Positions 337 to 3,031 of a stretch of 5,182 nt of DNA are shown piece by piece (the first letter of the stretch is position 1; every line of letters starts with the position of its first letter). The stretch is taken from IMG/VR virus record IMGVR_UViG_2529293215_000005, one strand, 5' to 3'. This stretch comes from a virus (Duplodnaviria > Heunggongvirae > Uroviricota > Caudoviricetes). Below the pieces are notes generated by a model. It was not told the DNA's origin, did no database searches, and saw only the letters and a list, made by a program, of their open reading frames with translations. The position numbers were made by a program, and so were the translations under genes.

Positions 337-382
337 TCGCTTTTCAGCGACGTAGGACGAATGTCCGTTGTTACAAAGAGCG
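337..382 (-). promoter_or_regulatory. nutR-like N-utilisation site: boxA (366-382) plus a boxB hairpin with a GAAA loop (337-350)
   Basis: The - strand reads CGCTCTTTGTAACAACG, then hairpin GGAC-ATTC-GTCC, then CTACG, then hairpin TCGCT-GAAA-AGCGA. The same architecture is present at nutL (2987-3031). It sits immediately downstream of the cro stop codon. Confidence 0.55.
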
Positions 383-392
383 GCTCCGCTTA

Positions 393-608
393 TTAAGCGG
401 CTTTGTGCTCCGGCGGGAACACGTCATCAAGACTTACTTTTGCGCCTAACTTGTTTAGACACGCAACAAGAGCACGGCATGTTTTAAGGTCTGGGAAGCG
501 ACGACCAGATTCCCAATGTCCGATAGCTCCCTGTGTGCATCCAACTGCCTTAGCAAGTGTTGTTTGAGAGATATTCAGTGACTCTCGATATTTTCGTAGG
601 TTGCTCAT
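393..608 (-). CDS. cro: Cro-like repressor (helix-turn-helix, 71 aa)
   Basis: 71-aa ORF divergent from cI. The helix-turn-helix segment ISQTTLAKAVGCTQGAIGHWESGRRFP shares the recognition-helix motif TQGxIGHW with the cI N-terminal domain. A GGAGGG Shine-Dalgarno lies 3 nt upstream of the ATG at 608. Confidence 0.8.
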   Translation of the reverse strand: MSNLRKYRESLNISQTTLAKAVGCTQGAIGHWESGRRFPDLKTCRALVACLNKLGAKVSLDDVFPPEHKAA

Positions 609-718
609 ATGCCCTCCATAGTAACCACGAATAAAAAATACAATATGTACTTCTCAAATACAAGTAAAAATACACATTGTGCATGGATGGTTCCAGTACA
701 GAGCGTAATAATAAGGAC
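609..718. promoter_or_regulatory. Divergent immunity control region (oR/pR/pRM equivalent) between cro and cI
   Basis: 110-bp AT-rich intergenic region between divergent repressor genes. A candidate pR on the - strand has -35 TTGTAT (658-663) and -10 TATTTT (635-640) with a 17-nt spacer. The motif AATACA(A) recurs at about 637, 657 and 669 and, as its reverse complement, in the pL region. Confidence 0.55.
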
Positions 719-724
719 ATGAAA

Positions 725-1378
725 ATGAAATGGTATGAACTGGCTAGATCCAGAATGAAAGAGCTCGGCATAACTCAAGAGAAGTTAGCCGAAGAGCTAG
801 GTATGACGCAGGGTGGAATTGGACACTGGTTGCGCGGATCTCGTCATCCATCTCTTAGTGATATTGGTGTGGTGTTTAAATACCTTGGTATTGATAACAT
901 ATCATTCAACCACGACGGGACATTTTCACCTGTTGGCGAATACTCATCGGCCCCAGTTAAAAAACAATATGAGTACCCTGTTTTTTCTCATGTTCAGGCT
1001 GGGATGTTCTCTCCAGAACTCAGAACCTTTACCAAAGGTGATGCGGAGAGATTGGTAAGCACAACCAAAAAAGCCAGTGACTCTGCATTCTGGCTTGAGG
1101 TTGAAGGTAACTCAATGACCGCACCAACAGGTTCCAAACCTAGTTTTCCTGACGGGATGTTAATTCTGGTTGACCCTGAGCAAGCTGTTGAGCCCGGCGA
1201 TTTCTGCATAGCCAGACTTGGTGGTGATGAATTTACCTTCAAGAAACTGATCAGGGATAGCGGTCAGGTGTTTCTACAACCACTAAACCCGCAATATCCA
1301 ATGATCCCATGCAATGAGAGTTGTTCCGTTGTGGGGAAAGTTATCGCCAGCCAATGGCCTGAAGAGACGTTTGGGTAA
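725..1378 (+). CDS. cI: CI-type phage repressor with a LexA/S24 autocleavage C-terminal domain
   Basis: The C-terminal roughly 130 aa ([29 protein letters not shown]...[14 protein letters not shown]) match lambda CI from memory, including the GNSM serine region. The N-terminal ~80 aa is a different helix-turn-helix domain. Start chosen at ATG 725 because an AAGGA Shine-Dalgarno sits at 713-717; the track ORF begins at TTG 677, and ATG 719 is an alternative. Confidence 0.9.
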
Positions 1379-1749
1379 AGAGGATAGATGGAGTTTAATG
1401 GCCATGAGTATCAAGCGGTCAAAAAGAAGTTCATCTATTCATTGAAAGCATAAGGCCATCTGAGTATATCCGTAATGATCTGGATATTGTCTATAACATC
1501 AATGACCGGACGATAGATATCGGTGAGCAGCGTCCTGTATGGCAGGGTGAGGCAGGTGAAAAAACGTCCTGCCATCAACAAGAATCAAGTGCATCCGCTC
1601 TCTGGACAGATGGAAAATTTATTGGATGCAAAAAGATATGAAATAACACCTGTATAGCACGGAGCTTTCTCTGACCGATGCACTTGAAGTTGTTAGGGCT
1701 GACCCAGCCTGCTGTTTCTTTAGGTAAGAGAAAAGAGATTTAGGAGATG

Positions 1750-1779
1750 AAAGGTCGCAGAGGTGCGGCCTTTTTTATT
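1750..1779 (+). terminator. Rho-independent terminator downstream of cI
   Basis: AAAGGTCGCA-GAGG-TGCGGCCTTT forms a 10-bp stem with one G-U pair and a 4-nt loop, followed by TTTTTTATT. Confidence 0.7.
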
Positions 1780-1788
1780 GAGAGTGGA

Positions 1789-1847
1789 TCTTGAACGGAA
1801 ATTCTCAAGACTTGAGTCTTGCATGCAAATCAATTCCTGGATAAACT
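1789..1847 (+). promoter_or_regulatory. Cluster of overlapping palindromes plus a candidate promoter upstream of the 173-aa ORF
   Basis: TCTTGA (1789-1794) and TCAAGA (1805-1810) form an inverted repeat. CTCAAG-A-CTTGAG (1804-1816) is a 13-bp palindrome. CAAGAC/GTCTTG (1806-1821) is a further inverted repeat. A candidate promoter has -35 TTGCAT (1819-1824), a 17-nt spacer and -10 TAAACT (1842-1847). Confidence 0.35.
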
Positions 1848-1879
1848 CGATCTGAGTCAATAACTTAGAGAGAGAGCAA

Positions 1880-2401
1880 ATGGCAAAGTCAAACGTTAGC
1901 GTGCAGGCATTCAAGGACTTCCTTGAAGAGCTTATGTCGCTGAACATAATGAAGGAGGCCACCGCTCGAAATTTAAAAAACTCATCCGCTCGCCTCTTAA
2001 CGGTAGTCCAAGAAGAGGAAATGGGTGATGTTACTCAGCTTGATGTGAATGAGCTTGCCGAGCGATACATCAACGCAACTGAGCCGAAGCCTAGCGACAG
2101 CAGCATTACTGCATATAAAAGCCGCATGGAAAGTGCAATCAAAAAGTTTGTAGCTTTCCAGTCTGGTGAAGAAATCCCATACACTCCGATTGACAAAGAA
2201 TCCAGTGAGGAAAAAGATTTGACTGGCGAACCAACAAAAGTCGAAGGCAAGGCTAATGCACTTCATACCTATGATCTTCCAGTAGTTCTTCGACCTGAAT
2301 CAGGGGTTACAGTAACGATTAAAGGCATTCCTAACGATATCACAAACGAAGAAGCCGAACGCATCTCTTCAATTCTGAAGGTTTACGTTCGGCCTCAATA
2401 A
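1880..2401 (+). CDS. Hypothetical acidic protein, 173 aa, no family recognised; cargo gene in the rexAB-equivalent slot
   Basis: Clean 522-nt ORF with a purine-rich Shine-Dalgarno region (AGAGAGAGAG, 1866-1875). Terminators lie upstream (1750-1779) and downstream (2703-2731). It occupies the position between cI and pL where lambda carries rexA-rexB. The protein has a predicted helical N-terminus, an acidic linker (SSEEKDLTGEPTKVEGK) and a C-terminal segment LPVVLRPESGVTVTIKGIPNDITNEEAERISSILKVYV. Confidence 0.7.
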   Translation: MAKSNVSVQAFKDFLEELMSLNIMKEATARNLKNSSARLLTVVQEEEMGDVTQLDVNELAERYINATEPKPSDSSITAYKSRMESAIKKFVAFQSGEEIPYTPIDKESSEEKDLTGEPTKVEGKANALHTYDLPVVLRPESGVTVTIKGIPNDITNEEAERISSILKVYVRPQ

Positions 2402-2574
2402 TGCAAAAGCATTCAGCACAATGTCCAACTCCCCAGTCCGACATTGATGCTGTTTAACCAGAGCCTCCAAAAGGAGCCCTTGTTAAGGTACACAATATTT
2501 GCGATGTAACCTTAGCGCGTCTGGTACATTTTTTCAAGCGGTTGTAGGGCTGCCGCCAATATGAGAAAACACAG

Positions 2575-2697
2575 ATGTCTACATACAATTTGAATGACCA
2601 ATTCGATCGAGAAGTTCATGTGAATGCCTATGAACGGATAAGGCATGGAAATCTTGAACATGTGTGTGAGCATTATCGCTCAAGGCCACACCGCTAA
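2575..2697 (+). CDS. Possible small ORF, 40 aa, His/Arg-rich (MSTYNLNDQFDREVHVNAYERIRHGNLEHVCEHYRSRPHR); may instead be untranslated 3' UTR
   Basis: ATG at 2575 with only a weak Shine-Dalgarno (GAGAAAACACAG). The stop is 5 nt before the stem of the 2703-2731 terminator. Below the track's size threshold and with no conservation evidence available. Confidence 0.2.
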   Translation: MSTYNLNDQFDREVHVNAYERIRHGNLEHVCEHYRSRPHR

Positions 2698-2702
2698 TCA
2701 TC

Positions 2703-2731
2703 AACCCGGCCTCCATGCCGGGTTTTCTTTT
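2703..2731 (+). terminator. Rho-independent terminator (tImm equivalent) insulating the cargo locus from pL
   Basis: AACCCGGC-CTCCAT-GCCGGGTT forms an 8-bp GC-rich stem, followed by TTCTTTT. Confidence 0.75.
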
Positions 2732-2911
2732 CCTCTCGCCCAAAAAAACACATAACCAATTGTATTTATTGGAAAATAAATAGATACAACTCACTAAACA
2801 ACGCAATTCTGATCTCTCCTTACATCGCCGAGGCAATACACCCACGCTAAAAAACAATACTATTAAATACAAAGCGTTGTAAAAAAACGCCCCGTTTTAG
2901 AACAAATTGTA

Positions 2912-2940
2912 TTGACCAAGTGAAGTACATATCGTACTAT
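2912..2940 (+). promoter_or_regulatory. pL-like early-left promoter
   Basis: -35 TTGACC (2912-2917), 17-nt spacer, -10 TACTAT (2935-2940). An inverted repeat AGTAC..GTACT overlaps the -10 and may be an operator. It lies about 190 nt upstream of N with nutL in between. Confidence 0.6.
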
Positions 2941-2986
2941 TTAACCATCAGCAGGACGCTGGAAGCCAAATGGAACAGACTGGCAG

Positions 2987-3031
2987 GCTCTTTAAACAAC
3001 GTCGACTCTCGACTACGTGGCTGAAAAGCCA
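2987..3031 (+). promoter_or_regulatory. nutL-like site: boxA (2987-2999), first hairpin (3001-3013), CTACG, boxB-like hairpin with GAAA loop (3018-3031)
   Basis: GCTCTTTAAACAACG resembles the boxA consensus CGCTCTTTAACAA. It is followed by GTCGA-CTC-TCGAC, then CTACG, then TGGCT-GAAA-AGCCA. This is the same arrangement as nutR, with compensatory base changes in the second stem. Confidence 0.6.

Follow-up and report, generated by a model that had tools for sequence, protein, structure and literature searches.

GAAA-tetraloop boxB hairpins at both nut sites of a Shiga toxin-converting lambdoid phage and the N subtype probably matched to them

Introduction

Antitermination by the N protein governs the delayed-early genes of lambdoid phages and, via Q, also their late genes, including stx. 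To our knowledge, all boxB hairpins with a solved structure (lambda, P22 and phi21) are penta- or hexaloops that imitate a GNRA tetraloop. The DNA analysed here, a stretch of 5,182 nucleotides (nt) of a Caudoviricetes virus (IMG/VR record IMGVR_UViG_2529293215_000005; hereafter the window), carries two candidate N-utilisation sites, nutL and nutR, whose boxB hairpins have the four-base loop GAAA, which raises the question of whether a true tetraloop can serve in N antitermination and which N protein would read it. The two sites are very probably functional, and the N-terminal arginine-rich motif of the N protein encoded next to nutL is very probably matched to a GNRA-tetraloop boxB. The four-part layout of the sites is the known one of phage H-19B and is not new; what appears distinctive, as judged from the sequences, is the four-base boxB loop together with a cognate N subtype.

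Anatomy of the nut sites

The composite pattern GCTCTTT-N(1-3)-AACAACG-N(8-14)-CTACGT[GC]GCTGAAAAGC[GC]A matches the window exactly twice, at nutL (2987-3031, + strand) and nutR (337-381, - strand), and was given by none of 200 dinucleotide-preserving shuffles of the window, in agreement with the first-pass annotation, which had described a four-part motif shared by the two sites. Both sites lie in the sense of their own transcripts (from pL and pR, respectively) and thus on opposite DNA strands, nutL about 45 nt past the -10 hexamer of pL and about 100 nt before the N gene, and nutR between cro and cII. Their naming as nutL and nutR is therefore supported by orientation, position and neighbours (the pL-like promoter and N on one side, cro and cII on the other). 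In both, the order is boxA, spacer hairpin, UACG and boxB (Table 1).

The boxA of both sites fits (C/U)GCUCUU(U)A, the reference sequences being UGCUCUUUA for rrn and CGCUCUUA for lambda (PMC2724277), and GCTCTTT is kept in nearly all nutL sites that accompany an N protein of the window's subtype (type A, see below). The spacer hairpins of nutL and nutR are unlike each other, as reported before. Their borders had been drawn slightly differently: the C of the earlier 'CTACG' is the last base of this hairpin and the G of 'AACAACG' its first base, whereas the remainder of that description stands, and the invariant single-stranded unit is thus UACG. This linker is present in 47 of 47 unique tetraloop sites, an invariance that is partly by construction since UACG served as the search anchor, and it is also found in H-19B and 933W.

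The isolated boxB hairpins fold as predicted into five base pairs with a GAAA loop (-7.1 kcal/mol for nutL and -6.7 kcal/mol for nutR; z = -3.35 and -2.59, respectively, relative to shuffles). By sequence, each boxB has a four-base G-N-R-A loop on a Watson-Crick closing pair, and a five-base loop with an extruded base (the third in GACAA, the fourth in GAAGA/GAAAA) occurs at neither site. An Rfam scan of the window at E <= 10 returned no nut or boxB family, the sole real match being the cIII thermoregulator.

Covariation of the two hairpins

Covariation was counted for the two-hairpin structure on 47 unique tetraloop sites (alignment A1), all of them from related sequences. Only tetraloop sites were counted because a joint MAFFT alignment with the pentaloop sites had its 1-nt indel set at the 3' end, which threw the columns out of register. 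Standard pairs fill 91.7% of the cells, as against 72.7% in shuffles, and seven of the ten pairs are changed on both sides (three of five in boxB and four of five in the first hairpin). The covariation score is 0.407 as against 0.104 in shuffles, with 0 of 500 shuffles as high, and it falls to at most 0.083 when the partners are slid by 1-3 columns. It is lowered by four epsilon34-type nutL rows, which are misaligned in the first hairpin and were counted as unpaired.

Going from the outermost pair of boxB inwards to the closing one, the types observed are UA/AU/CG, GC/CG, GC(GU), CG and UA/CG, the closing U-A becoming C-G in locus L164. Within the window, the swap from G-C to C-G at the second pair (TGGCT/AGCCA in nutL, TCGCT/AGCGA in nutR), from which selection on the RNA hairpin had been argued, is read directly from the sequence. 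The compensatory changes across the family indicate that the boxB hairpin is maintained by selection, the single change described originally being part of a family-wide pattern. The conservation check proposed with the original claim comes out in its favour, a GNRA-loop hairpin being kept in all homologous phages.

The spacer hairpin is the counterpart of the H-19B 'reducer' and is conserved in structure, not in sequence. Its pair types include GC/UA, AU/CG/UA/GC and CG/GC/GU; the loops of the nutL type vary (CTC, ATC, ACTC, ACAC and GCAC) with the stem retained, and the nutR stem variants GGGC/GTCC and GGGC/GCCC still pair. RNAalifold independently returns both local hairpins from the 47 sites, its alignment containing only the 3' end of boxA, so that pairing between boxA and boxB was not predictable there.

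Such pairing is the minimum free energy (MFE) structure of both whole-site RNAs (61-63 nt; 2980-3040 on the + strand and 330-392 on the - strand), in which boxA GCUCUUU pairs with the loop and 3' arm of boxB (AAAAGC) and encloses the first hairpin. The complementarity is present in every site, and the long-range fold might be a regulated state that hides boxA and boxB until N and the Nus factors bind; the title of the H-19B study, which reportedly speaks of 'alternative NUT RNA structures', counts in favour of this possibility. It is nevertheless very unlikely, as the whole-site folds have weak z-scores (-1.1 and -1.6), any of the four bases (G, A, U or C) may precede GCUCUU while the partner in AGCCA is fixed, so that covariation is absent, RNAalifold predicts the two local hairpins within the limit given above, and the first hairpin and boxB would form co-transcriptionally before any competition.

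Association between the arginine-rich motif and the boxB loop

The N protein of the window carries an N-terminal arginine-rich motif, FKGTAASRRRARRANLQS (type A; RRRARRANLQ), and its homologues begin MSRKTEFKG. Type A is defined as F-x-G-[ST]-x-x-x-RRR-[AE]-x-RA-x-LQ and is found in the window, in Cronobacter- and Pantoea-like phages and in epsilon34/g341c, while type B is RRRERLKAKALANG (H-19B, 933W and HK97) or RRRERLKSAAISRG (locus L104); the H-19B-style nut scaffold is used by both. As aligned with MAFFT, type A has a deletion of seven residues relative to type B just after RRRER, and the residue correspondence beyond the RRR core is therefore uncertain. A sequence search of the PDB with the window N returned nothing at E <= 10.

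Loci were gathered by four routes, namely N homologues in viral contigs, annotated phage records, species-representative genomes and a nutR-anchored DNA search with a free 4-5-nt loop that is independent of N. Among 196 N-encoding loci of type A, nutL has a tetraloop (GAAA or GCAA) in 195, the remaining one being without upstream sequence, and nutR has GAAA or GCAA in 177, nutR being undetected at the other 19. Type B accounts for 109 N-encoding loci, 107 of which have GACAA in nutL. The nutR-anchored search yielded 117 loci with the loops GAAA, GCAA and GACAA only, all 50 of type A having a tetraloop and all 31 of type B a pentaloop. Type A thus accompanies a tetraloop at both nutL and nutR, and type B accompanies GACAA, without exception. 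The scan of species-representative genomes added 14 loci, of use as independent replicates (Enterobacter and Pantoea) and too few for statistics.

Within this Pfam family, N has a mosaic make-up, several arginine-rich N-termini being joined to several central and C-terminal modules, and the motif-loop rule holds on N scaffolds of 90, 93, 105 and 120 amino acids (aa), with C-termini that are either P22-like (YAAGYRKSKQLTAR) or lambda-like (..KSIPLI). In loci L393 and L396, from Pantoea conspicua and Ca. Pantoea formicae (N open reading frames near 4501), the type-A motif is joined to a lambda-N-like C-terminus (..GRQIHAVQKMRGKSIPLI/V) in place of the P22-like ..YAAGYRKSKQLTAR, and the tetraloops of the nut sites are still GAAA; the part of N that binds RNA and the part that binds polymerase thus recombine independently. 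In loci L083 and L117, nutL and nutR differ within one phage (GAAA versus GCAA), which fits a GNRA fold whose second base is not read.

The closest approach to an isogenic swap is given by L104 and L089/L095, which are identical over the 42 nt upstream of UACG (boxA and first hairpin): L104 has TGGCC-GACAA-GGCCA with RRRERLKSAAISRG, and L089/L095 have TGGCT-GAAA-AGCCA with RRRARRAELQS. The first hairpin is common to both motif types and therefore cannot be the specificity element, which leaves the loop of the second hairpin as the determinant. These data bear on the explanation that N recognises the first (spacer) hairpin, with the GAAA hairpin as an accessory or NusA site. The first hairpin is indeed structurally conserved and covarying, and differs between nutL and nutR, yet a single N must use both sites, whose first hairpins are unrelated in sequence and loop, and these loops vary freely among phages with 98-100% identical N. 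Moreover, the nutR first hairpin GGACATTCGTCC serves both motif types, as does the one shared by L104 and L089, and deletion of the H-19B dyad, according to Neely and Friedman in 2000, reportedly had little effect. Recognition of the first hairpin is accordingly rejected as highly improbable. The arginine-rich motif co-varies with the loop of the second hairpin and not with the first hairpin; the second is thus the probable N target on this comparative evidence, and the refuting condition named in the earlier annotation, N on the first hairpin and not the second, comes out in favour of that annotation.

Among the otherwise uniform type-B sites, Salmonella phage SPN9CC (L086; N at 4501) is an exception: its nutL has a different hairpin after UACG (GCTC-CGTCAAC-GAGC or the mismatched GCTCC/CGAGC), and its nutR reads TCGCT-GACAA-GGCGA, with a U-G closing pair. 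Two short contigs in a 'Segatella copri' metagenome-assembled genome (L391 and L397) carry Escherichia coli lambdoid N regions, the N of L391 being 98% identical to the window N and its nutL and nutR the same as in the window; these contigs are almost certainly binning contaminants.

Proposed mechanism

The nascent RNA transcribed from pL or pR would present boxA, the short hairpin, UACG and boxB in turn. The consensus boxA would be bound by the host NusB-NusE(S10), while the spacer hairpin may have no sequence-specific role and would take 12-13 nt out of the linear spacer, bringing ..ACAAC next to UACG. NusA is expected to bind the spacer and UACG, and the N-terminal arginine-rich helix of the 90-aa N the boxB tetraloop. 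N and NusA would then be tethered to the polymerase by RNA looping, and the modified polymerase would pass tR1 as well as the terminators beyond N. Specificity would lie in the pairing of motif and loop, RRR[A/E]xRAxLQ with the four-base loop, and the H-19B/933W/HK97 subtype RRRERLKAKALANG with GACAA, which would have the same fold plus one flipped-out C.

Some considerations weigh against the matching of type-A N to the tetraloop. All boxB cells in the covariation count pair, and this figure of 100% is partly by construction, as a 5-bp stem of complementary arms after TACG was the condition for entry of a boxB site into the collection; such a stem was nonetheless present at almost every N locus, and the spacer hairpin was not a selection criterion. 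The 305 N-encoding loci represent 58 unique haplotypes and include many close relatives and some contigs that were fetched repeatedly, so that locus counts overstate independence. Covariation does not discriminate against the MFE fold of boxA with boxB because both segments are nearly invariant. The literature retrieved yielded no binding or antitermination data for the type-A N subtype. Furthermore, Legault et al. in 1998 are said to have found that a lambda boxB cut to GAAA binds the N peptide and supports no NusA-containing complex. If this result is general, a tetraloop boxB needs a different N-NusA-RNA geometry, and the natural tetraloop system may assemble differently from that of lambda.

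A further explanation is decay, whereby GACAA sites would have lost one base and be carried along in prophages as weak or non-functional tetraloop sites. The nutR loop is that of H-19B nutR minus one base, and many carriers of tetraloop sites are prophages, but decay would need the deletion at both nutL and nutR in every lineage, always with a changed motif. The stems, besides, keep pairing by compensatory change and the loops are confined to the GNRA sequences GAAA and GCAA. The module is also carried by phage isolates that form plaques or can be induced (2851, 1717, the Stx1-converting phage (Stx, Shiga toxin), 2G7b and phi-8), and 819 of the 5426 complete E. coli genomes (~15%) contain it, so that there is very little to recommend decay as an explanation.

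A role of the palindromes as DNA, whether in protein binding or as hot spots of recombination where mosaic segments join, or else in termination or RNase III cleavage, is hardly credible at all: nutR does lie at a mosaic boundary, with at least three unrelated cro 3' ends joined to it, and the complement of the nutL first hairpin has a weak terminator-like score on the minus strand, but the two copies, on opposite strands, have the same sense relative to their promoters and keep the asymmetric loop GAAA (not TTTC) on the transcribed sense, recognition of a DNA site would not favour stem covariation, and the loop co-varies with an RNA-binding motif, so that a DNA-level palindrome is rejected for strand-sense specific sites and a terminator for boxB hairpins neither of which is followed by a U-tract.

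If type-A N does pair with the tetraloop boxB as proposed, the module would bear on how N complexes assemble. It is put forward tentatively that these sites and proteins form a widespread natural N/boxB class with a bona fide GNRA tetraloop without an extruded base and a distinct, shorter motif with Ala in place of the P22 Arg. Were this so, an extruded nucleotide would not be universally required for assembly of the N-NusA-RNA antitermination complex, and the type-A and type-B pairs, about one loop base and a few motif residues apart on shared scaffolds, would be a minimal naturally orthogonal RNA-peptide pair. A natural tetraloop boxB with a cognate motif lets the part of the extruded base in NusA recruitment, as well as the number of changes needed for a specificity switch, be tested directly, and it may provide a further compact peptide-hairpin tethering pair, possibly orthogonal to those already available. 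Within E. coli the module is common, and it sits in medically relevant phages, being carried by Stx1-, Stx2a- and Stx2c-converting phages of O157:H7. The genes of the nutL-N segment are labelled 'hypothetical protein' in eight complete RefSeq E. coli genomes among the matches listed (H86-H93), and the record of the Stx1-converting phage has N annotated and the nut sites unannotated.

Genomic context

The window represents the immunity/early region of a lambdoid phage that converts its host to Stx production: over positions 80-5182, Stx2a_WGPS4 matches it at 100% identity, and ~99.8-100% identity is shared with phages 2851 and 1717, with the Morioka Stx1-converting phage and with numerous further Stx-converting lambdoid phages of E. 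coli O157:H7. The alignment to the closest phage records begins only at position 80, leaving out positions 1-79, and a mosaic joint at or near the cII 3' end is thus indicated. Beyond N, the genes ea10, cIII, kil, gam and bet follow in this order.

Table 1. Nut-site elements and neighbouring features of the window (the + strand is the pL direction)
Feature	Position	Strand	Remarks
cII	42-251	-	Pfam Phage_CII
nutR-to-cII interval	252-336	-	nearly identical to H-19B nutR/tR1 region
nutR boxB	337-350	-	stem TCGCT/AGCGA with GAAA (loop 342-345); same stem in H-19B, with GACAA
nutR UACG linker	351-354	-	
nutR spacer hairpin	355-366	-	GGAC-ATTC-GTCC; identical to H-19B/933W nutR spacer hairpin
nutR boxA	367-381	-	GCTCTTTGTAACAAC (RNA GCUCUUUGUAACAAC; core GCUCUUUG)
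cro	393-608	-	directly upstream of nutR on the pR transcript
cI	about 684-1378	+	transferred from AP005153 annotation
173-aa open reading frame between cI and pL	1880-2401	+	phrog_2602 (function unassigned), E = 3.5e-102
40-aa open reading frame	2575-2697		phrog_21154; comes after the 173-aa frame
Strong terminator-like hairpin	2703-2724		downstream of the 173-aa and 40-aa frames
pL-like promoter	2912-2940	+	TTGACC-17-TACTAT; consensus match only; would transcribe nutL and N
nutL boxA	2987-3000	+	GCTCTTTAAACAAC (RNA GCUCUUUAAACAAC); core GCUCUUUA matches rrn/consensus boxA
nutL spacer hairpin	3001-3013	+	GTCGA-CTC-TCGAC; from right after ..ACAAC to right before UACG
nutL UACG linker	3014-3017	+	single-stranded
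nutL boxB	3018-3031	+	5-bp stem TGGCT/AGCCA with GAAA (loop 3023-3026); predicted N-binding hairpin
N gene	3130-3402	+	90 aa; Pfam PF25694 N_peptide, E = 3.4e-32; phrog_271
Candidate tL1	3701-3722 (or 3701-3732)	+	first intrinsic-terminator-like site past N; consensus scan only
Second intrinsic-terminator-like site past N	3847-3868 (or 3847-3878)	+	consensus scan only

The pL-like promoter has the same -35 and -10 hexamers as a promoter feature of AP005153 (4335-4362, offset 1421), which is labelled there as 'putative maintenance promoter for CI'. The 173-aa open reading frame occupies the slot held by rexAB in lambda and may be a lysogen-expressed moron; neither Pfam nor PADLOC gave a match for it, or for the other neighbouring open reading frames without an assignment. 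The cIII thermoregulator element RF01804 (4323-4381, + strand; Rfam 88.5 bits, E = 2.4e-21) overlaps the start of cIII (4336-4500).

A perfect palindrome, CCGCTTAATAAGCGG (386-400), spans the cro stop codon a short way upstream of nutR boxA; it has a terminator-like score on the + strand and accompanies this cro allele alone. In phages with 98-100% identical N (loci L001-L082), the same nutR is preceded by at least three unrelated cro 3' ends (..CGCTTAATAAGCGG.., ..GCAGCATAAGTAAC.. and ..GCCGCCTAAGCAGTA..). The mosaic joint lies immediately 5' of boxA, and nutR thus travels with N specificity, not with immunity.

Comparison with known nut systems

The architecture is distinct from that of lambda, as the first-pass annotation stated, and it had escaped that annotation that the same layout was already described for H-19B and 933W. 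In H-19B, 933W and HK97, a boxA-like sequence ending in ..ACAA(C/U) is followed by a hairpin that starts with G and ends before UACG, and by a boxB with a 5-bp stem and a closing U-A pair. The H-19B nutR (AF034975) reads ..CGCTATTTTCACAAT-GGACATTCGTCC-TACG-TCGCT-GACAA-AGCGA and its nutL ..ACAAC-GATTCGAATATGAATC-TACG-GCGCT-GACAA-AGCGC, and the nutL and nutR features in the GenBank record of 933W fall at the corresponding places. From the hairpin to cII (~90 nt past boxB), the window hardly differs from H-19B and 933W: the loop of its nutR boxB lacks one C, and two bases are substituted farther downstream. Its nutR boxA is the consensus one instead of a degenerate one.

The H-19B loop is thus GACAA (5 nt) and that of the window GAAA (4 nt), and the H-19B combination of GACAA with RRRERLKAKALANG does not occur in the window. 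The H-19B N is homologous to the window N (about 40% identity, same Pfam family) but has 127 aa instead of 90, with seven extra residues before the conserved ISSxxLHRPT. The spacer stem-loop of H-19B was reportedly named 'reducer' by Neely and Friedman (Mol Microbiol 2000), its structure being said to matter and its sequence not; the same work is said to have found that H-19B N needs neither NusB/S10 nor boxA. The nutR boxA of H-19B and 933W is CGCTATTT (GCTATTT; L002, 5632-5650), as against the consensus GCTCTTT in the window and in some type-B phages; the reported independence of NusB/S10 may therefore not apply to the window, and the boxA difference could underlie different NusB/NusE requirements. 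The C-to-A change in the H-19B nutR boxA is that of the lambda boxA16 mutant RNA, cgcuauua (PMC2724277). RNase footprinting of H-19B nutR noted two hairpins, the spacer and boxB being protected by N, NusA and NusG together; the authors assign the spacer protection to NusA and the protection of the boxB loop to N, and tR1 of H-19B is a Rho-dependent terminator (PMC3526286).

Phages epsilon34 and g341c have the same motif type as the window, GSA[AS]GRRRERRAALQ, and a GAAA-tetraloop boxB at both sites, but their N has 120 aa with an H-19B-type central domain, their nutL boxA is degenerate (GGTGAACATACAAC) and their nutL stem is CGGCT or AGGCT. In the epsilon34 genome paper, a 'novel BoxB specificity' was predicted from the divergent N-terminus of N (PMC2629481), and TCGCTGAAAAGCGA is annotated as a putative NutR in the GenBank record of g341c. 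As far as these sources were readable, neither spells out the tetraloop nature or the motif-loop rule, and full-text literature searches, outside which key subscription papers lay, returned no description of a tetraloop boxB, of these boxB sequences or of the rule.

The logic is the same in lambda, where boxA and a spacer lead to a boxB whose purine loop, on five base pairs, is GNRA-like, with nutL before N, nutR after cro and dependence on Nus factors. Lambda has five loop bases (GAAGA/GAAAA), of which the fourth is extruded, as opposed to the four of the window, its spacer is linear (8-9 nt) without a hairpin (sequences in PMC2724277), and its N motif has no close sequence similarity to that of the window.

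P22 has the same type of boxB stem (GCGCU/AGCGC; PDB 1A4T) with a closing U-A pair, and the C-terminal ~24 aa of its N are about 80% identical to the window N, whereas its nutL (cgctctttaac-ttcgatgat-boxB) lacks the spacer hairpin and UACG and its motif is GNAKTRRHERRRKLAIER. According to nuclear magnetic resonance analysis of the P22 N-boxB complex, GACAA adopts a GNRA-like fold whose looped-out C contacts His7 and Arg11 of the peptide (PMC12550061). P22 GACAA minus this C is the GAAA of the window, and in GCAA a C takes the N position of this tetraloop. When the motifs are anchored on F-x-G, an Arg and an invariant Ala of type A would fall at the positions of P22 His7 and Arg11, respectively, and an Ala in place of Arg11 agrees with the absence of a flipped base to hold.

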